A stretch of DNA of 64,000 bases from an uncultured bacterium (GCA_963766885.1 CAVYBO010000002.1:528606-592605); one strand, 5' to 3'; positions 6,637 through 64,000 are shown, counted from the stretch's first letter. Numbers and translations are program-made. Notes: generated by a model not told the origin, from the sequence alone.

Positions 6637-6707
6637 TGCGGGCAGAGAGAATCGAACTCTCGTCTACTGCTTGGAAGGCAGTCATTCTACCACTAAACCA
6701 TGCCCGC
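6637..6707 (-). tRNA. tRNA-Gly (anticodon TCC)
   Basis: Reverse complement GCGGGCATGGTTTAGTGGTAGAATG...ACTGC CTTCCAA GCAGT...GGTTCGATTCTCTCTGCCCGCA gives a cloverleaf with T-loop TTCGATT. No CCA encoded. Confidence 0.85.
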
Positions 6708-6796
6708 AAAATATTAAAGAAGTAGAAGAAATATACCAAATCATAACCCTCTTATCAACCATCCTGCGCAAAATCTTGTTGCTATAATAATCAGTA

Positions 6797-7987
6797 ATGA
6801 TCGCCAAAATTATAGCTGTAACAATAATTTCCATTATGTCTTTTTTGGGTTATCCGCAAAAAGATTATGTCGACTTGCTGCCAAAAAATATCCAAAATGT
6901 TACAGACCCATCCGTAATCCAAAATTCAGCAGGCACTTCTACTCCGAAGCAATCGGGGGCAAGTTTGCCAAAAACAACCACGGAAAATGTAACAAAAGCT
7001 CTTAAACCAATAACCCATAAAAGTAGGCCTAAAATAAGAGTGGTTTTCCAAACAACTCCCAAAATCAGCACCACCCAAACTTCAACACCTACAACTTTAA
7101 TCCCGGGAAGCAATACCTTGCAAATTCAAAAAGTGTTTAACCCCCAACCCCAAATCCTTTCTGCTTTAGCAAACCTCAGTCAAAAAATTCAAGCCTCTAC
7201 GGCAAATATTTACTGCGTGGCAAGGCGAGGACCTTATATTGAACAAACTTCTGGTAGCGCCGTAGAAATCGATCCTTCAGGAGTTTATCTGACAAACGCA
7301 CATGTAGCAGTTTATGTAATGCTTGCAGACACGGAGCCTGACGGCACAGTACTCTGTTATATTCGTGAAGGTTCGCCGGCACAAGAAATTTATCAGGCCA
7401 ATATAGTTTATCTGCCTTCTGCTTGGGTTTATGCCAACAGAAACGCATACTCAATCACAACTCGTCTAACCGGTACAGGAGAAAAAGATTACGCTATCAT
7501 TAAAAGAGGTGAACTGCTCACAAATAATCCACCGGCTGAATGGAGTAGTTCAATTGAAACACAAGCGCCAATTATAGGAGAAACTATTTATCTTTCTGGA
7601 TATCCTGTTTTTGACCAGTCGGTTTTAACTTCTGCACTTGTCTCTATTACAGACCAATCTTCCATAACCAATATATATAATTTATCAAATACAAACGGCG
7701 CCCTGTTTGACAGCGCGCCGACAACCATGGCTCAAATAGGCTCATCTGGCGGAGGAGTATTTGATTCAAATGGGAATCTTTTGGGAATTATGGATGCGGA
7801 AATAAGCTCTGTGCCAGGTGAAGCTCCAAGCGAAAGGATTGTTGGGATAAATTATATTGAAAACGATTTGCAATCGGACACAGGACAAAGCTTGCAAAGC
7901 TTTATCTCAAACGCAGCAAGCGAATCACAAAAATTCCTCCAAAATTCCGCACCAGCTCTTTCAAACATTTTGATTTCTAATCAATAG
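6797..7987 (+). CDS. Membrane-anchored trypsin-like serine protease
   Basis: N-terminal TM helix. Catalytic His region (VYLTNAHV) and Ser region (GSSGGGVF) resemble chymotrypsin-fold S1 peptidases. Confidence 0.55.
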   Translation: MIAKIIAVTIISIMSFLGYPQKDYVDLLPKNIQNVTDPSVIQNSAGTSTPKQSGASLPKTTTENVTKALKPITHKSRPKIRVVFQTTPKISTTQTSTPTTLIPGSNTLQIQKVFNPQPQILSALANLSQKIQASTANIYCVARRGPYIEQTSGSAVEIDPSGVYLTNAHVAVYVMLADTEPDGTVLCYIREGSPAQEIYQANIVYLPSAWVYANRNAYSITTRLTGTGEKDYAIIKRGELLTNNPPAEWSSSIETQAPIIGETIYLSGYPVFDQSVLTSALVSITDQSSITNIYNLSNTNGALFDSAPTTMAQIGSSGGGVFDSNGNLLGIMDAEISSVPGEAPSERIVGINYIENDLQSDTGQSLQSFISNAASESQKFLQNSAPALSNILISNQ

Positions 7988-8002
7988 AAAGTAACAAAAA
8001 TA

Positions 8003-8092
8003 GTTCTCGAAAAAGAGACTTTGGAGGAGCGACGGCGACGGAAGCGAGGAAATTTTTCAGCAGAAAAAATTCCGTGCTCTTTGAGAGAACTA
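8003..8092. repeat. GC-rich structured small repeat element, copy A
   Basis: Core ...ggaggagcgacggcgacggaagcgagg aaatttttcagcagaaaaaattcc... with internal hairpin and imperfect terminal inverted repeats. Homologous to the copy at 30475-30565. Confidence 0.5.
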
Positions 8093-8395
8093 TTTTTGTG
8101 AACGTCTCACAATCTTCAAAACCTCCTCAAAATTATCGTTTTCCAAAAGTTTTATCTTCCTCTCCTCTCCACATGAAACACATTGGTGCGTCAACACATA
8201 ATCCTTTCCTCTCTTCTCCAAGGCAATCAGCTTCATCATTCCTCCGCATTTCTCTGCTCTGTCGCCCGGAAACACATCTACATGTTTGCTCCACAAGCAC
8301 TTTGGACAATGATTTGTATAACCACTCCCTTTAACATCCGCACCGCAGTGCTCACATACAAAATCTTCAATTTTCCTCTGAAATTTTTGGGACAT
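8090..8395 (-). CDS. RNHCP domain-containing protein
   Basis: Contains GYTNHCPKCLWSKH and a second Cys cluster (HQCVSCGEERK) typical of the RNHCP zinc-ribbon domain. GC above background. Confidence 0.5.
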   Translation of the reverse strand: MSQKFQRKIEDFVCEHCGADVKGSGYTNHCPKCLWSKHVDVFPGDRAEKCGGMMKLIALEKRGKDYVLTHQCVSCGEERKIKLLENDNFEEVLKIVRRSQK

Positions 8396-8463: not shown

Positions 8464-8511
8464 ACTCGATTTTCTTTATACTCCGTCGTTCGGAGTTTAT
8501 TTCACACAGTA

Positions 8512-9945
8512 CTAATTGACCTCGCTCGTCTCCTTCAACTTTCGAGCTTCCTCGAAGACGGGAGCGAACTCCTTCTCCATTTGCTCGGCCGCGGAATAGA
8601 TGAGCTCAATAGTGCGATCAACTTCAGCGACTTTGTACTGCCGCTGTTGTTCCCTCTTCTGCTCTTCGGCGGCCTGCTTCTGCTTGCGCTCGGTGTCGTC
8701 GCGATAGATCCATCCGTGAGAGTTCCAATCGGGGCACCGGAATCTTCCAGTGATCCCTTTCTTCACTTCATGGACGACTTGATCGAGATTGAGCACTGTC
8801 GGCTCGACGTTGCAGTGCTTCAGCGTTCCGTTGGTGGCGTAGGGCGCCTCCTGGAAACGATTCCACTCTGGGCAAGCTAGCACCGAATCGTGTGAGTATC
8901 GCTCCATATCAGTGAGAACTGACCGGCCGCGCAACTCGTTTTCCTTGTCGCGAAGGCGAGCGCAAACATCGCAGGAACACCAGTGTTTTCGGCGATCCAT
9001 GGCGATGTTGACGTTTCCGGTTTCGGGATTTTTGACAATCACGATTCCGAAACCACCTTTGTTAAGTGCTTCGCTTTGCACCCAGCGATTGTTTGTCACA
9101 ATCGCCAGAAGCGGCACGTCGCCGACACGGGTGTGATCCACCCACACGCTCTGCTCGCCATCTTGGAGATGCTTGCCATTTCTGACGCGCTTAATCTCCG
9201 CCTTGGCCTGCTCTTTAAGCGTGAGTGTGAAACCCATGGCCGCTTCGGCCATGCCGAGAAACCACTCGGCTTTCTTATCGCCGAAGTGTCTGCGAATGAG
9301 AATCACCGCAATACCAACGCAGAGCTGCCACCCCTTCTTATCGCCGTAGGATTCCAACAACTCGTCCTTCTCGGCAAGCTGGAAGTCCTCCCTGATCTGC
9401 GCTGCGTAAGCGAGTGCCGACCAGCCACGAACCTGTTCCTCGGAGTAAAGTTCGGTATCGTGAAGCTGCTTCACCATACCCGGGATTTCCTGCGCCATTT
9501 CGGTGCCATTCTTTTCTTCAAACAGCACCTCTCTCAAGGAACGCTTGATGGCGCGACGCTGGAGCTTATTAAGTCGGAGCTTAGAGACCATTTTGGTGGC
9601 TGCGCACTCCTTCCCATTGATCTCCTCGTGTTCGTCGAAGATATCGACGCGCGGTCCCTTTCCCACACCAACGAAGATCGTGTGAGGACCACCGATATTG
9701 CTGTCGGCGATGTGTTCGTCCGAACTGATATAACCAAACGAGGCCGCGCCGATCGCCGGAAAGGTCTTCGCCACCGCGTCTGGAAAGACACTGTTGATGG
9801 CAAAAATAAAATGCTCGTCGGCATCCATCCGAAGATGGCTGACAAAAAGGGTTACTTTGTTTCCTGGCACCCAGTGCCTGAAATTTTCTGCTGTCATTTT
9901 TTCTAACTCCTGCCTATGACTTGTGACTCTGGTCAATTTGCTCAA
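8512..9945 (-). CDS. MYG1/UPF0160-family metal-dependent hydrolase paralog with Cys-rich C-terminal extension (GC-rich, likely foreign)
   Basis: Aligns block by block with the 10900-11946 protein (H..DADE region, G.G..FDEH, NVEPT near the C-term). Local GC ~55% against ~35% background. Confidence 0.45.
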   Translation of the reverse strand: MSKLTRVTSHRQELEKMTAENFRHWVPGNKVTLFVSHLRMDADEHFIFAINSVFPDAVAKTFPAIGAASFGYISSDEHIADSNIGGPHTIFVGVGKGPRVDIFDEHEEINGKECAATKMVSKLRLNKLQRRAIKRSLREVLFEEKNGTEMAQEIPGMVKQLHDTELYSEEQVRGWSALAYAAQIREDFQLAEKDELLESYGDKKGWQLCVGIAVILIRRHFGDKKAEWFLGMAEAAMGFTLTLKEQAKAEIKRVRNGKHLQDGEQSVWVDHTRVGDVPLLAIVTNNRWVQSEALNKGGFGIVIVKNPETGNVNIAMDRRKHWCSCDVCARLRDKENELRGRSVLTDMERYSHDSVLACPEWNRFQEAPYATNGTLKHCNVEPTVLNLDQVVHEVKKGITGRFRCPDWNSHGWIYRDDTERKQKQAAEEQKREQQRQYKVAEVDRTIELIYSAAEQMEKEFAPVFEEARKLKETSEVN

Positions 9946-10130
9946 GTCGTGTGTATTTAGTCAACTAGTTTTTGCTAGCAGCATTTTAGAAAGAAAAAAT
10001 TCCGTTCAAAATGCTGCCAGCAGTCTGATTTCAAAGACCACTTTATTACTGGTATATTCTATCACATTTTTATCATAAAGTCAAACAAGAATACTCTTAT
10101 AAAATAAGCTTAAAATGCTATAATTTTTTC

Positions 10131-16229: not shown

Positions 16230-16650
16230 ATGATCACACCAGATTCCGACGCTTTTGCGGCCGGCAAACTGGCCGAGCGCCGCGAGGCAATGAGAGCGAA
16301 GCCCCGAACCCGAAGAAAGGATATTGAGACGGTGTTGTGCCACCGAGGCTCCGATCTGCCATTCCCCAGATTCTCTCGGTCTGCAAGTCCAACGCCGAAA
16401 GCCTGATTTTCAGGCCCAATGCTGACATCCTCCGTGAGTTGTCGCGTGCATTCGAACTCACTCCAAGCTCCAGTTAAATATCGGCACCGAAGAAAAGCCT
16501 GACATCGTCAGCATTTACTACCTTGGCAACGTGGAAAGCATCGGCGATGATGTCATCGCCATAGTTCCGTACAGCGTCGCCAGCGAGGAGTGGGCAGTGT
16601 GGGCCGCCCAGAACGCGACCCTTTACCCTCAAGAAGAGGCGGCGGCCTAA
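16230..16650 (+). pseudogene. Decayed high-GC coding fragment (foreign gene remnant)
   Basis: GC ~57% over ~450 bp in a 35% GC genome. Coding-like translation in shifting frames (58-aa ORF MITPDSDAFAAGKLAERREAMRAKPRTRRK..., then ...TEEKPDIVSIYYLGNVESIGDDVIAIVPYSVASEEWAVWAAQNATLYPQEEAAA) broken by stops. Confidence 0.35.
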
Positions 16651-16723: not shown

Positions 16724-17656
16724 TTATTTATTGCCGCTGTGGAATTTTTTGTGAATATTGTGTAGTTGCTTGTCTGTAACGTGAGTATAAATCTGCGTTG
16801 TGTTTATGTTTGCGTGCCCCAAAAGCATTTGGACTGATCGCAAATCAGCGCCGTTTTGAAGCAAATCCGTGGCAAAAACATGCCTAATAACGTGTGGGGT
16901 AACTCTTCCTGTAATACCTGCAATCATTGCGTATTTCTTTACAATTCTTTCTACCGAACTTCTATCAAGATTACCATCCCCTTTTTTAATCTCCCTTTTT
17001 TTTGTAGAAATTCTAGTGAAAAGCGCGCCGCCCAAATCTTTACGCAAATTCATATATTCCTTTAAAACTTTTTTGGCATTCCCTGAAACAAAAACTACGC
17101 GGATTTTTCCTCCTTTTCCCCTCACAGAAAGCTCATCTGAAGAAAGGTCTATGTCTCTTGGAAGAGAACAAAGTTCGGAGACTCTAAGTCCTGTGGAAAA
17201 AAGCATTTCCATTATAGCCTTGTCCCTGGCTCTCATTTCGGGATTTTTTTCCATTTTAGGGGCTTCCAGAAGGCGACTGAGTTCAGAGCTTGAGATAACG
17301 TCAATTGACCTTTCGGGCACTTTGGCCAGATCAATTTGGTCGGCTGAAACAAGTGTTTCTATTTTTCTCTTTGAAAGATATTTCAAAAAAACCCTTAGAG
17401 TAATCATGTAATAATTCTGGGTTTTTTTGCTCATTGTTTCGTTTGTGCATTGTTGTGGACGGCCAGGCTGGCGATTTAGCCACAAACGAAACTCCCGAAT
17501 AAATTTTCATTTAATATCTTTCGGTGATTTTATATTTCCGAATTCAAAAAATTTGGTCAAATAACCTTCATAATTTTCAATAGTTCTAAGCGCTCTGCCT
17601 TTTTCTATCTCCAAATATTCAAGAAACTGTCTTTTGAGAGTGTATATGTCGTTCAT
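16724..17656 (-). pseudogene. Tyrosine recombinase (XerC/XerD-like) interrupted by an in-frame TGA
   Basis: Catalytic domain with HVIRHVFATDLL and LLGHANINTTQIYTHV. The N-terminal core-binding segment MNDIYTLKRQFLEYLEIEKGRALRTIENYEGYL... (ATG at 17656) is in the same frame but separated by TGA at 17507-17509. A downstream TTG (17485) could restart a truncated 253-aa product. Confidence 0.6.
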
Positions 17657-29894: not shown

Positions 29895-30753
29895 ATGAAT
29901 AAAATTTTTGCAAAAAAATCGCTTGGACAAAACTTTCTTTCTTCGAAAAAAATTGTTGAAAGAATTGTTATGGAAGCAAAAGTTTCCAAAGAAGACTGTG
30001 TGCTTGAAATCGGCCCAGGCAAAGGGATTCTAACGGAAGCTTTGCTTGAAAAGGTAAAAAAAGTGATTGCTGTTGAAAAAGATGATTTTCTATTTGAATT
30101 CTTGAAAGAAAAATTCGCCAAAGAAATCAAAGTAAAAAAATTGGAAATAATTCATGAGGATATTGTTGATTTTGATCAAGAAAAAATAAAAAAACCTTAT
30201 AAACTTGTGGCAAATATTCCATACAACATAACCGGAGAAATTCTTCGAAAATTTTTGTCTGGTAAAAACAAGCCAGAGTCTATGACGGTACTTGTCCAAA
30301 AAGAAGTGGCGGAAAGGATTTTTGCTCGAGATGGCAAAGAAAGCCTGCTTTCAATAAGCGTCAAAATATTCGGCACGCCCCGACTTGGATTTGTCATAAG
30401 CCGCGGACAATTTAACCCTGTCCCAAATGTGGACTCTAGAGTTTTATCAATCGATAATATAAACGAGGTCTCAAAAAAATTTGAGGCTCTCGGAGCGCGA
30501 CGGCGCGAGAGCGAGGATGTTTTTCAGCAGAAAAAACATCCGTACTCAAATTTTTTTGAGCCGAGTGAATATTTTTTCAAAAATCGTCCGAACTGGTTTT
30601 GCCCACAAGCGAAAATTTTTAATAAAAAATTTGGAAAAAGTTATTCCGAAAGAAAAACTAGCCGAAATTTTTGCGGAAGCAAAAATTTCGGCTCTAGCTA
30701 GAGCCGAAAATCTGACAGTGGAAGACTGGTTAAAAATTACTTCTGATTTTTAA
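29895..30753 (+). pseudogene. rsmA: 16S rRNA dimethyladenosine transferase RsmA/KsgA interrupted by a repeat-element insertion
   Basis: KsgA N-terminal two-thirds (LGQNFL, EIGPGKG, ANIPYNIT) in frame 1 up to ~30482. The conserved C-terminus (IFSKIVRTGFAHKRKFLIKNL...) continues in another frame (ORF 30481-30753). The intervening ~90 bp is the GC-rich repeat also found at 8003-8092. Confidence 0.55.
30475..30565. repeat. GC-rich structured small repeat element, copy B (inside ksgA)
   Basis: aaaaaaatttgag...ggagcgcgacggcgcgagagcgagg gatgtttttc agcag aaaaaacatc ...ctcaaattttttt with terminal inverted repeats and internal hairpin. Confidence 0.5.
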
Positions 30754-31136
30754 GTACTAGTTCCTGTCCCCGGTAGACTATTTAGTGTTCCATCAATATT
30801 TACGGTCACACAATCATCTGCCACCAAAATCTCACACTCGCCACCCTGACTATATGAGCCCAGAAGATATCTTGAAGCCCAAATGTCGTCATAAATATAC
30901 AAACGTGATTGGCCTGGTTCATAAAGCAGATTTAATTCCCGCTTTGTTCCAAAATCATAAACTATAACCACATCATTGCTGGCATCGCTGCACGTACAAG
31001 GAAGTGTAACCAAATGCAGAGCTCCAAAATATGTAGAAATTCCAGCAGACTGTGCATAAACACGAGTGACAGCAAGAAAAATCAGGGCAGTTGAAATTAT
31101 AGAGGAAATTATTATCAGATATTTTTGCTTTTTCAT
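30750..31136 (-). CDS. Small secreted Cys-containing protein
   Basis: Signal peptide MKKQKYLIIISSIISTALIFLAVTRVYAQ. No family assignment. Confidence 0.4.
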   Translation of the reverse strand: MKKQKYLIIISSIISTALIFLAVTRVYAQSAGISTYFGALHLVTLPCTCSDASNDVVIVYDFGTKRELNLLYEPGQSRLYIYDDIWASRYLLGSYSQGGECEILVADDCVTVNIDGTLNSLPGTGTST

Positions 31137-50210: not shown

Positions 50211-50303
50211 ATATATAAAAGTGAAAACCCCATATCGATCAAGATATGAGGTTGAAGGTTTGCGGCCATCCTTCAGGCCGAGTGGTCTACCACTATATTT
50301 GAT

Positions 50304-51044
50304 TTACGAATTGAGCATCTTCTTCCAGTCGAGCCGCTCAAAGCCGAGTTGCTGCCCGATTTTGTCGATGGCCCCGAACTGGTTGCGAAGCCGCTTCCTG
50401 TCTCCTTTGACTCCGTCGCGCTCTGCCGCCTTGAAATCAGCAGCAGTTTTTTGCGCAAGAGTGTCCAAAGTAGACTCGAGCCTTTTCTGGAGCTCCTCTC
50501 CGCCGAAATCGAAGTCATCGATTTCCCACAACAAGCGACTACCGTCACTATCATGTTGGGAATGCCACTGGATTTCGAAGGCGAGGCCTTCAATAATTTT
50601 TGCAGCAATCACTCGCTTGCGCCACGGCCTCCAGGCTTTTGCCACCATCTTGGTGGTGTCGCCGGGGCGACTGGATAAAGCCCTTTTATTTGGGAAATAG
50701 AGCAGACCGACTAGTATTGAGAGAAATATCCCAACCATCGAATATGTGTCCAGGTAGTGGCGTGTAGATACGACAATCACCGCGGTAATCGGGATGATTA
50801 TCAATACCGAGCACAGAAACATCCACAACTTGATGGAATTCCATTCGCTGAGCTTATTGAGGCAGCTCTCCGCGTTGTCCAGGAAGCCCTTGAGCTTAGA
50901 ATTGCCCAAGGATTCGATGAACGTTTTGGTGAAGTGGGTTCCGATGACCTGCAGCGCGTAGCTGCTGGCCTGGTCGCCACTTATCCCCTCCCTTTTTTGG
51001 GGAAGGGTTATTCTTACGGTTTCTTTCTTCGTTATCATTTTCAA
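50304..51044 (-). CDS. Hypothetical two-TM membrane protein, GC-rich (~50%)
   Basis: Complete ORF. GC clearly above flanking genes. Two adjacent TM helices. Confidence 0.4.
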   Translation of the reverse strand: MKMITKKETVRITLPQKREGISGDQASSYALQVIGTHFTKTFIESLGNSKLKGFLDNAESCLNKLSEWNSIKLWMFLCSVLIIIPITAVIVVSTRHYLDTYSMVGIFLSILVGLLYFPNKRALSSRPGDTTKMVAKAWRPWRKRVIAAKIIEGLAFEIQWHSQHDSDGSRLLWEIDDFDFGGEELQKRLESTLDTLAQKTAADFKAAERDGVKGDRKRLRNQFGAIDKIGQQLGFERLDWKKMLNS

Positions 51045-51233
51045 TGTTCCTTATAGCCATTCAAATACAAGATAGGGCGCTTTGCCCAGACTGCTTTTTC
51101 GTCTGCAAAGACGAGGTATCTGCTAAGACACCAGACAGTCCTGTTATCTCGCAAGAGTATTTTGGCCTATGACTCTGTAATATATTATATCACATTTATG
51201 TAAAAAATCAATAGCAATATAAAATCACCACTT

Positions 51234-60870: not shown

Positions 60871-61022
60871 CTATATATACTAACGTTTTTATTTCAATCT
60901 GTCTTTACTAAATAGCTATAAAAAATATGCAATAACTTTTTTATCTAGTATAGTTCTTGACAATATTTATAAATAGTGTATAATAGCCTAATTAGTAAGA
61001 AAGGTTAGTAAAAAGCGAATAT

Positions 61023-64000
61023 ATGCAACATAAATCAAGACAAGTAAATACGTTTCTGGTCGCAATTCTAATCATTTTTTGTATTTCCTTTCCTATAGTT
61101 ACATTTGCTCAGTACGACGATGGTTCAGATGATTCTGGTTCTACATACGATTCAGGAAACTACGGATCAACATATGACTCTGGAGATTCTGGTTCTACAT
61201 ACGATTCAGGAAACTACGGATCAACATATGACTCTGGAGATTCTGGTTCTACATACGATTCAGGAAACTACGGATCAACATATGACTCTGGAGATTCTGG
61301 TTCTACATACGATTCAGGAAACTACGGATCAACATATGACTCTGGAGATTCTGGTTCTACATACGATTCAGGAAACTACGGATCAACATATGACTCTGGA
61401 GATTCTGGTTCTACATACGATTCAGGAAACTACGGATCAACATATGACTCTGGAGATTCTGGTTCTACATACGATTCAGGAAACTACGGATCAACATATG
61501 ACTCTGGAGATTCTGGTTCTACATACGATTCAGGAAACTACGGATCAACATATGACTCTGGAGATTCTGGTTCTACATACGATTCAGGAAACTACGGATC
61601 AACATATGACTCTGGAGATTCTGGTTCTACATACGATTCAGGAAACTACGGATCAACATATGACTCTGGAGATTCTGGTTCTACATACGATTCAGGAAAC
61701 TATTCTTCAGATGAATATTACATTACAGGGACAGGATCTGAAGAATATATATATTCAACAACACCCACTTATTCTTTCATACCATATTATTCAACCACTG
61801 TTGTAAATAATAATTGTACTGGTTCTAGTTGTAATACAACCACAAAAACCCCTCCACCACTTACTGGTTTTTGTTTAGGATATCCAAGTTCTGTAATGAC
61901 TGGCCAATCTGTAGATTGGTCTGTTACTGCGTCTGGAAGCAAGGGAGATTATGCATACTCATGGAGCGGAGCTGTCAGTGGATCTGATAAAAGTTTATCA
62001 ACATCATATGATACTGCCGGTATCAAAACTGCTGATGTTGTGATTTCTTCTGGCGGTTCAAGTTTTAGTACAAATTGTTCTGTAAAAGTTACCGCGCCCC
62101 CTCCAGTCAAAGCATATTGTATTGCAAACCCATCAAGCACCAAGATCGGTGATGAAGTAACCTTCAGAGTAGCTCCATCTGGCGGAAGAGGAGGAGCAGG
62201 ATACACATACTCATGGAGCGGAGCGGTTAGCGGAAACAACATCAGTGAATCAAATACTTTCTCTTCTTCTGGAACAAAGACTGCTGTAGTGAAAGTGACT
62301 TCTGGATCTGACAGTGTAGAAGCACAGTGCTCAACAAACATCCAACCAAACCAAGTCATCCCTCCAGTCAAAGCATATTGTATTGCAAACCCATCAAGCA
62401 CCAAGATCGGTGATGAAGTAACCTTCAGAGTAGCTCCATCTGGCGGAAGAGGAGGAGCAGGATACACATACTCATGGAGCGGAGCGGTTAGCGGAAACAA
62501 CATCAGTGAATCAAATACTTTCTCTTCTTCTGGAACAAAGACTGCTGTAGTGAAAGTGACTTCTGGATCTGACAGTGTAGAAGCACAGTGCTCAACAAAC
62601 ATCCAACCAAACCAAGTCATCCCTCCAGTCAAAGCATATTGTATTGCAAACCCATCAAGCACCAAGATCGGTGATGAAGTAACCTTCAGAGTAGCTCCAT
62701 CTGGCGGAAGAGGAGGAGCAGGATACACATACTCATGGAGCGGAGCGGTTAGCGGAAACAACATCAGTGAATCAAATACTTTCTCTTCTTCTGGAACAAA
62801 GACTGCTGTAGTGAAAGTGACTTCTGGATCTGACAGTGTAGAAGCACAGTGCTCAACAAACATCCAACCAAACCAAGTCATCCCTCCAGTCAAAGCATAT
62901 TGTATTGCAAACCCATCAAGCACCAAGATCGGTGATGAAGTAACCTTCAGAGTAGCTCCATCTGGCGGAAGAGGAGGAGCAGGATACACATACTCATGGA
63001 GCGGAGCGGTTAGCGGAAACAACATCAGTGAATCAAATACTTTCTCTTCTTCTGGAACAAAGACTGCTGTAGTGAAAGTGACTTCTGGATCTGACAGTGT
63101 AGAAGCACAGTGCTCAACAAACATCCAACCAAACCAAGTCATCCCTCCAGTCAAAGCATATTGTATTGCAAACCCATCAAGCACCAAGATCGGTGATGAA
63201 GTAACCTTCAGAGTAGCTCCATCTGGCGGAAGAGGAGGAGCAGGATACACATACTCATGGAGCGGAGCGGTTAGCGGAAACAACATCAGTGAATCAAATA
63301 CTTTCTCTTCTTCTGGAACAAAGACTGCTGTAGTGAAAGTGACTTCTGGATCTGACAGTGTAGAAGCACAGTGCTCAACAAACATCCAACCAAACCAAGT
63401 CATCCCTCCAGTCAAAGCATATTGTATTGCAAACCCATCAAGCACCAAGATCGGTGATGAAGTAACCTTCAGAGTAGCTCCATCTGGCGGAAGAGGAGGA
63501 GCAGGATACACATACTCATGGAGCGGAGCGGTTAGCGGAAACAACATCAGTGAATCAAATACTTTCTCTTCTTCTGGAACAAAGACTGCTGTAGTGAAAG
63601 TGACTTCTGGATCTGACAGTGTAGAAGCACAGTGCTCAACAAACATCCAACCAAACCAAGTCATCCCTCCAGTCAAAGCATATTGTATTGCAAACCCATC
63701 AAGCACCAAGATCGGTGATGAAGTAACCTTCAGAGTAGCTCCATCTGGCGGAAGAGGAGGAGCAGGATACACATACTCATGGAGCGGAGCGGTTAGCGGA
63801 AACAACATCAGTGAATCAAATACTTTCTCTTCTTCTGGAACAAAGACTGCTGTAGTGAAAGTGACTTCTGGATCTGACAGTGTAGAAGCACAGTGCTCAA
63901 CAAACATCCAACCAAACCAAGTCATCCCTCCAGTCAAAGCATATTGTATTGCAAACCCATCAAGCACCAAGATCGGTGATGAAGTAACCTTCAGAGTAGC
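61023..64000 (+). CDS. Giant secreted tandem-repeat surface protein (3' end outside window)
   Basis: ATG at 61023, signal peptide MQHKSRQVNTFLVAILIIFCISFPIVTFAQ, then (SGSTYDSGNYGSTYDSGD)x10, then a linker and at least 8 PKD-like ~87-aa domains. No stop in frame to the window end. Absent from the ORF track because it has no stop. Confidence 0.6.
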   Translation, partial: MQHKSRQVNTFLVAILIIFCISFPIVTFAQYDDGSDDSGSTYDSGNYGSTYDSGDSGSTYDSGNYGSTYDSGDSGSTYDSGNYGSTYDSGDSGSTYDSGNYGSTYDSGDSGSTYDSGNYGSTYDSGDSGSTYDSGNYGSTYDSGDSGSTYDSGNYGSTYDSGDSGSTYDSGNYGSTYDSGDSGSTYDSGNYGSTYDSGDSGSTYDSGNYGSTYDSGDSGSTYDSGNYSSDEYYITGTGSEEYIYSTTPTYSFIPYYSTTVVNNNCTGSSCNTTTKTPPPLTGFCLGYPSSVMTGQSVDWSVTASGSKGDYAYSWSGAVSGSDKSLSTSYDTAGIKTADVVISSGGSSFSTNCSVKVTAPPPVKAYCIANPSSTKIGDEVTFRVAPSGGRGGAGYTYSWSGAVSGNNISESNTFSSSGTKTAVVKVTSGSDSVEAQCSTNIQPNQVIPPVKAYCIANPSSTKIGDEVTFRVAPSGGRGGAGYTYSWSGAVSGNNISESNTFSSSGTKTAVVKVTSGSDSVEAQCSTNIQPNQVIPPVKAYCIANPSSTKIGDEVTFRVAPSGGRGGAGYTYSWSGAVSGNNISESNTFSSSGTKTAVVKVTSGSDSVEAQCSTNIQPNQVIPPVKAYCIANPSSTKIGDEVTFRVAPSGGRGGAGYTYSWSGAVSGNNISESNTFSSSGTKTAVVKVTSGSDSVEAQCSTNIQPNQVIPPVKAYCIANPSSTKIGDEVTFRVAPSGGRGGAGYTYSWSGAVSGNNISESNTFSSSGTKTAVVKVTSGSDSVEAQCSTNIQPNQVIPPVKAYCIANPSSTKIGDEVTFRVAPSGGRGGAGYTYSWSGAVSGNNISESNTFSSSGTKTAVVKVTSGSDSVEAQCSTNIQPNQVIPPVKAYCIANPSSTKIGDEVTFRVAPSGGRGGAGYTYSWSGAVSGNNISESNTFSSSGTKTAVVKVTSGSDSVEAQCSTNIQPNQVIPPVKAYCIANPSSTKIGDEVTFRV
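61131..61705 (+). repeat. Ten perfect 54-bp tandem repeats (18-aa units) plus a partial unit
   Basis: Unit gattctggttctacatacgattcaggaaactacggatcaacatatgactctgga starts at 61131, 61185, ... 61617. Confidence 0.9.
62101..64000 (+). repeat. At least seven identical 261-bp tandem repeats (87-aa PKD-like domain), continuing past the window end
   Basis: Unit starts at 62101, 62362, 62623, 62884, 63145, 63406, 63667 and 63928 with exact 261-bp period. Confidence 0.9.

Follow-up and report, generated by a model that had tools for sequence, protein, structure and literature searches.

Is a palindromic repeat at the join of a split housekeeping gene the cause of the split, or is it read through as part of the protein? 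The question is raised by ksgA (rsmA; 29895–30753, + strand) in a stretch of 64,000 nt from an uncultured bacterium with a tiny, 596-kb genome (GCA_963766885.1, CAVYBO010000002.1:528606–592605; hereafter the window, with positions counted from its first letter), where the gene is divided between two reading frames and a structured insert occupies the join. Judged by comparison with homologous sequences, ksgA probably carries a 25-codon, in-frame copy of a repeat element of Patescibacteria together with a separate one-base surplus, likeliest an A in 30579–30583, 19–23 nt downstream of the element. The original prediction from this DNA had placed the N-terminal part and the C-terminal helix domain of KsgA in different frames, and the open reading frames (ORFs) agree. 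The features of the locus, all on the + strand, are as follows.

29895–30701, +: ksgA N-terminal ORF, frame 0 (from the ORF list)
30481–30753, +: ksgA C-terminal ORF, frame +1, carrying IFSKIVRTGFAHKRKFLIKNLEK (from the ORF list)
29895–30485, +: N-terminal S-adenosylmethionine (SAM)-dependent methyltransferase domain, then the first part of the inter-domain linker, frame 0, as far as DNINEVSKKFE
30470–30560, +: entire 91-nt palindrome of the repeat element, a three-way junction of outer stem P1 with hairpins A and B
30470–30485, +: P1 5′ arm, CTCAAAAAAATTTGAG, encoding (V)SKKFE
30486–30512, +: hairpin A, with a GCUCUC/GAGAGC lower stem, GGA internal loop, GCGC/GCGC upper stem and GACG loop
30515–30541, +: hairpin B, GGAUGUUUUUC AGCA GAAAAA(A)CAUCC, read in frame 0 as EDVFQQKKHP
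30545–30560, +: P1 3′ arm, CTCAAATTTTTTTGAG, exact reverse complement of 30470–30485, read in frame 0 as YSNFFE
30486–30560, +: likeliest extent of the net insertion, 75 nt or 25 codons in frame, judged from the 25-residue gain and the best profile score
30561–30578, +: native-looking ksgA codons following the element and reading PSEYFF in frame 0 (ccg agt gaa tat ttt ttc)
30572–30577, +: T6 run, second-best site of the surplus base in a single-base deletion scan
30579–30583, +: A5 run, likeliest site of the one-base surplus (frame 0 to +1) in the same scan
30579–30701, +: out-of-frame tail of the frame-0 ORF, KNRPNWFCPQAKIF...GSS, with no KsgA similarity
30583–30753, +: ksgA C-terminal helical domain, frame +1, IVRTGFAHKRKFLIKNLEK...ITSDF and then the stop, with no further defects

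A structured insert in a conserved ksgA

In its motifs and domains the host gene is an ordinary member of KsgA/RsmA (PF00398 RrnaAD; the 16S rRNA A1518/A1519 dimethyltransferase). Homologues, all of them PF00398, are 65–69% identical to the N-terminal part (E values down to 1e-102), and KsgA chains in the PDB match the product with E = 3e-33. Membership is indicated by the similarity of the methyltransferase domain and by the SAM and NIPY motifs (EIGPGKG and ANIPYNIT, respectively), which are invariant columns in the alignment of homologues; the C-terminal helix domain contains FAHKRK, and the uvrD–ksgA gene order is common to the window and its relatives. The gene is unlike a typical ksgA in having a 25-residue insert in the inter-domain linker and, as assembled, a frame shift. 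The C-terminal domain is not contiguous with the rest in one frame: it lies in frame +1, one base too many, and is intact, undamaged and as conserved as the remainder of KsgA. Both frames are open from 30463 to 30701 (a 238-nt overlap), the first frame-0 stop being at 30699–30701.

At the join, a perfect 16-nt inverted repeat (CTCAAAAAAATTTGAG / CTCAAATTTTTTTGAG) encloses two hairpins. Hairpin B (GGATGTTTTT..AAAAACATCC at 30515–30541; also GGATGTTTTTC..GAAAAAACATCC) is the most conserved part of the element family described below. The RNA fold of 30460–30575 reaches −50.3 kcal/mol, compared with −25.7 ± 2.9 kcal/mol in shuffled sequences (z = −8.4; 0 of 200 shuffles as good), and the core pattern of the element has an expected count of 0 in 100 shuffles. 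An element of about 90 bp with inverted repeats and a hairpin had been predicted here, and the 16-nt stem and the hairpins are present; its description as GC-rich goes too far, with a G+C content of only 0.45 versus 0.39 for the window, concentrated in hairpin A. The boundaries of the 75-nt insert are ambiguous through the repeated GAG/TTTGAG and by up to ~16 nt. The sequences TTTGAG and CTCAAA recur 75 nt apart, both belonging to the palindrome itself. The P1 5′ arm may be native ksgA sequence, relatives reading SKEKF or SKENF at this position.

The palindrome also places slippery heptamers in phase with frame 0 in both P1 arms, at 30473–30479 (tcA AAA AAA) and 30551–30557 (aaU UUU UUU). The G+C-rich hairpin A comes 6 nt beyond the first, an arrangement typical of a −1 frameshift site; a −1 shift would leave ksgA unrepaired.

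A family of palindromic elements across Patescibacteria

An exact scan for the core (21 specified hairpin-B bases, GAGGANNTTTTTCAGCAGAAAAA; one genome per species) returned 27 loci, of which 26 were in Patescibacteria: Saccharibacteria, Zambryski-, Kaiser-, Taylor- and Parcubacteria, and unclassified members. The remaining locus, in Saprospiraceae (L009), was rejected as a chance nucleotide match in a protein motif, EEVFQQK, with neither outer stem nor hairpin A. A covariance model (R2) was built from 26 copies in other genomes, with the window sequences excluded. It recognized the ksgA copy at 30472–30555 (75.9 bits, E = 4.3e-20) and a second copy in the window over 8004–8087 (47.1 bits, E = 1.4e-11; fold z = −4.95); beyond these two, scanning the window with R2 gave nothing else convincing. 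That the join is occupied by a small structured repeat, as proposed originally, is thus borne out by a multi-copy family with a further member nearby.

~7994–8099, +: second window copy of the element, between the convergent genes 6797–7987 (+) and 8090–8395 (−), with hairpin A partly degenerate

All true copies have the same architecture, a long outer stem (P1) with hairpins A and B. A conserved core of ~60 nt is closed by a variable outer stem, for a total of 90–170 nt. P1 differs in sequence from copy to copy and is almost perfectly paired, up to ~35 bp; in hairpin A, a G(G/C)A / GA internal loop separates the lower stem from a 4-bp upper stem, which is capped by a loop of 4–5 nt; and hairpin B has an invariant UUUUUCAGCAGAAAAA apex. 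Among the 26 copies from other genomes, compensatory changes occur in 14 of the 25 consensus pairs and support the outer stem and both hairpins (the covarying helices 2 and 3 correspond to hairpin A). Paired cells amount to 93%, versus 78% in shuffles and 44–60% with the partners slid, and cells changed on both sides number 106 where 30 are expected. In 25 of 27 copies the fold of the sense strand is better than that of the antisense strand, the mean difference being 6.8 kcal/mol; mismatched pairs in P1 are G-U in 13 cases versus A-C in 4, and helix 2 contains many U-G pairs.

Taken together, about 30 copies are distributed both between genes and within them, the host genes being uvrB, uvrC, tsaD, tgt, the RNase R gene and ksgA. 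The copies group by host lineage, suggesting that they descended mostly vertically and spread inside lineages. Because the outermost pairs are uncertain, comparing palindrome length modulo 3 among copies told nothing. Rfam covariance models had no meaningful overlap with the ksgA element at E ≤ 10, and at gathering scores they found only tRNAs on seven other element loci. Viral contigs, a phage collection and a plasmid collection contained no copy, and a profile search of a 5.8-billion-protein set with the element-encoded peptides (YFSAEK..PPS..PKVAL) gave three word-index candidates and no matches. We found no description of such elements in Patescibacteria (the candidate phyla radiation) in an open-access library of papers, absence from which does not prove novelty.

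Two saccharibacterial copies (L003 7282–7390 and L027 555–650) end at, or only a few bases from, the 5′ end of a tRNA gene (7211–7282 and 478–550, respectively). At L010 5036–5070, an extra small hairpin (CCGCCTCTGGCGG and surroundings) is nested in the P1 5′ arm and is missing from the otherwise near-identical L020 and L025.

Copies in other housekeeping genes are read through

Outside ksgA, in-gene copies occupy uvrC (L002), tsaD (sense in L004, antisense in L007 and L015), tgt and uvrB (both L026) and the RNase R gene (L028). The host frame is kept, free of stops, in eight of the eight other in-gene copies, for which the chance is ~1.5e-4 if frame were irrelevant; this argues against general removal of the element from mRNA. 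In a frame-blind survey of 34 model matches (32 in other genomes and 2 in the window), only ksgA had gene parts in different frames. Most in-gene copies are antisense to the mRNA (reading ..YFSAEK.PPS..PKVAL..), and the sense reading, ..RESE(E/D)(I/V)FQQK.., also occurs. The insert amounts to exactly 42 residues in uvrB, between PDB residues 427 and 428, and to 44 residues in tgt relative to solved structures. In both genes the whole palindrome is extra sequence, ruling out the general rule that one P1 arm is always native target; ksgA may still have such an origin. In the apical stem of hairpin A, amino acids vary between copies and the base pairs are kept, so that selection acts on the nucleic-acid fold and not on the peptide.

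The tsaD genes of two Zambryskibacteria (L004 1417–1532 and L007 4674–4788) have homologous outer arms (GAATCTGCAGAAAAC...) around cores of opposite orientation, as would be expected from inversion of the core between its own inverted repeats or from two independent insertions in the same loop. The tsaD copy of L015 is a truncated version of the element. In L026, tgt (6668–7999) has a second extra segment of ~30 residues (query 101–130) relative to solved Tgt structures.

The ksgA frame probably breaks downstream of the element

Read through in frame 0, hairpin B of ksgA encodes EDVFQQK, the frame being shared with the sense copy in tsaD (EEIFQQK). Past the element, frame 0 continues as EPSEYFF, which aligns to ENESFFF of Bacillus subtilis KsgA (6ifs). 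Close relatives read EEEKFFEVVKAGF and EEEIFFSVVKAGF at this site (EEKFF/EEIFF), with a nearly invariant FF pair. The agreement extends to DNA: ‘gaa tat ttt ttc’ of the window matches ‘gaa att ttt ttc’ in L065, and ‘tca aaa aaa ttt’ of its 5′ arm matches ‘agt aaa gaa aaa ttt’ (SKEKF) in L064 and L001. The repaired protein aligns to 6ifs over query residues 6–185 and 222–282 (on 22–207 and 219–284), with EPSEYFFKIVRTGFAHKRK opposite ENESFFFQLIKASFAQRRK, a net gain of exactly 25 residues over the solved B. subtilis structure. Reconstructions of the gene were scored with a profile of 119 KsgA homologues.

75-nt excision and one A removed from 30579–30583: 386.5 bits
75-nt excision and one T removed from 30572–30577: 381.7 bits
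90-nt excision and one A removed: 381.0 bits
76-nt excision (extra base at the element junction): 379.9 bits
85-nt excision (30480–30564, as originally proposed): 376.6 bits
91-nt excision (whole palindrome): 374.8 bits

An in-frame insert with a surplus A is favoured by 7–12 bits over models in which the element breaks the frame. Restoration of the ORF by itself is no guide: every 3n+1 deletion tried restores it, as does every single-base deletion tried within 30470–30585. The check first suggested, removal of 30480–30564, does yield a continuous KsgA of 257 amino acids, and is non-discriminating because both frames are open across the region.

Several points weigh against an in-frame element with a separate surplus base. 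The only broken gene found in the window breaks within 25 nt of the element, for which an unrelated indel in an 860-nt gene has a chance of ~6%, and a link between the two through imprecise insertion, hairpin-promoted slippage or local assembly error is plausible. The P1 5′ arm of the ksgA copy resembles that of the second window copy (TCTCAAAAAAA..GAG versus TCTCGAAAAAGAG). The whole palindrome was inserted in uvrB and tgt, and in ksgA its 91 nt (3n+1) would itself break the frame. Some of the weight of the FF pair comes cheaply, since the T run encodes Phe in two frames, and the comparison of sense readings is with a single other sense-oriented in-gene copy.

The strongest of the rival explanations, although unlikely, is that the insertion itself would be 3n+1 (76, 85 or 91 nt) and would have broken the frame, making ksgA a natural knockout through insertion of an element resembling a MITE (miniature inverted-repeat transposable element). 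Bacteria tolerate the loss of KsgA, the break adjoins the element, the 91-nt palindrome is 3n+1, excising 85 or 91 nt restores the ORF, and the palindrome as a whole is part of the insertion in uvrB and tgt. Against this, the reconstructions that it entails leave the linker 3–5 residues too short, lose the near-invariant FF and score 7–12 bits worse against the 119 homologues; frame 0 after the element matches KsgA at both the protein and the DNA level; the eight other in-gene copies are all frame-preserving; and the C-terminal domain shows no decay. Of the knockout proposed originally, the frame split with an element at the join therefore stands, whereas the break itself is likeliest due to a separate surplus base downstream. 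We give rather less credence to the element being a structured nucleic acid used by the host (a terminator, an RNA-processing site or a protein-binding site), its presence in ksgA being incidental or regulatory. Such a role would suit a core conserved with covariation across distant lineages of Patescibacteria, the better fold of the sense strand (25 of 27 copies, with G-U over A-C mismatches in P1, 13 to 4, and U-G pairs in helix 2), the position of the intergenic window copy exactly between two convergent genes and the two copies that adjoin tRNA genes. It would not explain why orientation is unbiased relative to flanking genes, why in-gene copies are mostly antisense to the mRNA, why contexts are unrelated and share no recurrent neighbouring gene, or why the second window copy is degenerate, and it is difficult to see why a regulatory site should occupy protein loops in six different housekeeping genes.

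A real break corrected in expression, yielding full-length KsgA through transcriptional slippage, +1 ribosomal slippage in U/A runs or removal of the hairpin from mRNA, is very improbable. The C-terminal domain is intact, and given the 238-nt overlap of open frames, a shift anywhere in 30470–30583 would give the full-length protein; UUU UUC AAA AAU would permit perfect +1 re-pairing of tRNA-Phe or tRNA-Lys, and the P1 arms contain the in-phase heptamers A AAA AAA and U UUU UUU. In animals, base-paired inverted repeats trigger excision of transposons from mRNA (PMC12779559). However, the runs are short (5–7), the +1 site has neither a stall codon nor a downstream stimulator, and the in-phase heptamers would yield −1, not +1; slippage is possible in principle, with nothing specific behind it. 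Excision from RNA is contradicted by the strict frame-keeping of all eight other in-gene copies (~1.5e-4), and there is no intron-like or ribozyme match in Rfam. Least credible of all is that faulty assembly produced the entire insert, for instance through a chimeric join or a palindromic artefact of the reads. Long perfect tandem repeats in the window do suggest long-read assembly, which is prone to local errors, but the insert is a complete, canonical member of a family present in 26 other genomes from independent projects, several times within genes, and it is in frame with the 5′ side of ksgA and with six codons on the 3′ side.

State of KsgA

On the reading with an in-frame element and a surplus base, that base is either an assembly error, in which case KsgA is intact with a 25-residue loop, or a real and very recent mutation that leaves KsgA without its C-terminal domain. 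Most probably KsgA is intact and has an additional loop of 25 residues, besides a one-base problem. If the base is real, the insert of 25 residues would join the catalytic domain to a nonsense tail of 41 residues, and the enzyme would be inactive because the C-terminal domain, which is needed for binding of the 30S subunit, would be lost. The intact, conserved C-terminal domain in frame +1 argues against an old pseudogene. Elsewhere in the window, five suspicious pairs of adjoining ORFs proved to be separate complete genes with no sign of a frameshift, so that indel errors appear to be infrequent; perfect 261-nt repeats at 62.1–64.0 kb point to long-read assembly, of which homopolymer errors are the typical residual error. 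A look-up of the window KsgA product on contigs found no record, and the collections searched include no second assembly of the same organism. The closest ksgA relative in a scan of metagenomes was 54% identical; no relative had the element, and no empty site was found. ksgA should not be called dead from the assembly alone.

Proposed mechanism

We propose that the element inserts into intergenic DNA and into permissive surface loops of housekeeping proteins, where it would be read through and add 25–45 residues. In ksgA it would have added 25 codons to the linker between the methyltransferase and C-terminal domains, an insert that KsgA appears to tolerate, and the frame break would be a separate event, one surplus base likeliest in 30579–30583. 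The element is probably selfish and mobile. The long, near-perfect P1 stems of differing sequence suggest arm-to-arm correction or template switching, and part of the outer stem in ksgA seems to derive from the target.

The folding bias towards the sense strand points to function as a folded single strand, probably the sense strand. In-gene copies are mostly antisense to the mRNA and intergenic copies have no orientation bias relative to flanking genes, making a role in mRNA unlikely. Our guess, by analogy with the ends of IS200/IS605, repetitive extragenic palindromic sequences (REPs) and attC sites, is that there might be a single-stranded DNA stage. In the neighbourhoods of 26 loci, searched for a candidate transposase (neighbourhoods only, not whole genomes), no protein family recurs other than that of the host gene tsaD.

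Patescibacteria are thought to be streamlined and poor in mobile elements. With considerable reserve, we suggest that the copies may represent an unrecognized class of non-autonomous element across this group, in which a shared enzyme would read the sense-strand three-way junction, essential genes would be colonized in frame and the element would build or extend its own closing stem, partly from the target, through inverted duplication or template-switching correction of the palindrome. If so, the element would keep supplying the proteins of minimal genomes with new surface loops. More generally, a conserved structured repeat that lies within uvrB, uvrC, tsaD, tgt, the RNase R gene and ksgA and leaves them unbroken would be a second, independent case of ‘selfish DNA inside proteins’ after Rickettsia. 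It accounts for part of the odd insertions in proteins of these bacteria and can mislead gene callers and pseudogene counts, and the covariance model R2 offers a handle for finding the mobilizing enzyme.

Comparison with known systems

The closest parallel in behaviour is with the Rickettsia palindromic elements (RPEs), in-frame palindromes within housekeeping genes (Ogata et al. 2000, as summarized in the review PMC10969869). As that summary presents them, RPEs share with the present family the nature of short, non-coding palindromic repeats of a reduced genome, located between genes and in frame within unrelated housekeeping genes, with a recurrent reading frame that adds a few dozen residues at fold-compatible sites. 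By the same account, RPEs are about 100–150 bp long and largely confined to one genus, whereas this family spans several lineages of Patescibacteria (Saccharibacteria, Zambryski-, Kaiser- and Taylorbacteria, and others). Unlike the RPEs as summarized there, it combines a variable outer stem with a three-way-junction core that is conserved and covaries, and it lies within genes in both orientations; on account of the taxonomic distance and the differing architecture, sequence homology would not be expected.

The label MITE-like fits loosely. MITEs (Correia, ERIC, BOX, RUP and others; reviewed in PMC10969869) are likewise small, multi-copy, non-autonomous and hairpin-forming, and sometimes lie in frame within genes, but what defines them is the conservation of their terminal inverted repeats, together with target-site duplications and a related insertion sequence (IS). 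Here it is the centre that is conserved, the outer stems varying from copy to copy and among subfamilies, and no clear target-site duplication or partner transposase was found at the copies examined. Recognition of folded single strands, as for REP/REPIN sequences mobilized by REP-associated tyrosine transposases (RAYTs), IS200/IS605 ends and integron attC sites, would fit the strand asymmetry, although mechanistically this is speculation. REPs are extragenic, 20–40 nt long and have a GTAG/CGTC head, whereas this element measures 90–170 nt, is intragenic as well and has no such head; attC sites combine conserved ends with variable centres, the reverse of the arrangement here. No RAYT, Y1 transposase or integrase was linked to the copies examined. 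The element is therefore RPE-like in behaviour, fails the tests of a MITE (conserved termini, partner IS) and of a REP, and matches no known RNA family.

Coding palindromes of Nematomorpha mitochondria (PMC6649704) resemble the ksgA copy in being perfect inverted repeats in protein genes with both arms translated, but they are organellar and far longer, and have no core common to the copies. Translational bypass (T4 gene 60 and mitochondrial byps) and programmed frameshift sites share with ksgA a structured insert where the frame changes. ksgA differs from them in that it lacks a pair of take-off and landing codons next to a stop, as well as any layout known to stimulate +1 shifts, and the rest of the family is read through.

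Other inserts and hairpins in ksgA

The inter-domain loop of KsgA carries different inserts at the same site in two relatives. In ksgA of a Pacebacteria relative (P0006), a 43-nt G+C-rich hairpin unrelated to the window element, GCCTGCCCGCCATTGACTGAGCCTACAGGCGATGGCAGGCGGG, occurs twice in frame (L001 10079–10121 and 10697–10739; peptide ACPPLTEPTGDGRR), one copy near the N terminus and the other at the linker position of the window insert, directly after SKENF. The linker of homologue P0081 has ~40 extra residues at the insert site, and homologue L036 (2282–3172) has ~50 extra residues in the N-terminal domain, the halves of which look related by reverse complementation (SPLLPSPL ... GEGGEGGWGG). 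The extra segments of P0081 and L036 suggest that there are several families of coding palindromes in these bacteria.

A 15-bp perfect hairpin, AGCCGAAATTTTTGC GGAA GCAAAAATTTCGGCT, lies in the 3′ coding region of ksgA (window 30660–30693; encoding AEIFAEAKISA) and overlaps a second palindrome at 30686–30709. This 3′ hairpin (14–19 bp) is kept with compensatory changes in four genomes (the window, L001, L063 and L064), with altered amino acids in L064. On the minus strand both hairpins of 30660–30709 precede T-rich tails and look terminator-like; they may be ksgA-embedded terminators of the convergent gene 30750–31136 (−). The element model also matches 30660–30709 weakly (E about 0.01–0.1).

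Other features of the window

Tandem repeat arrays occur in large ORFs at 61012–61821 (27/54-nt units) and 62099–63964 (at least 7 identical 261-nt units, reaching the window end), and probably encode repetitive surface proteins. Three islands of 62–74% G+C (8500–9950, 16250–16620 and 50300–51050) stand out from the 39% G+C genome and are possibly foreign or mobile DNA. One of them is a 477-amino-acid ORF (8512–9945, minus strand) with no Pfam match, adjoining the intergenic copy of the element, and another lies beside a phage-integrase-family gene (16724–17485, minus strand).

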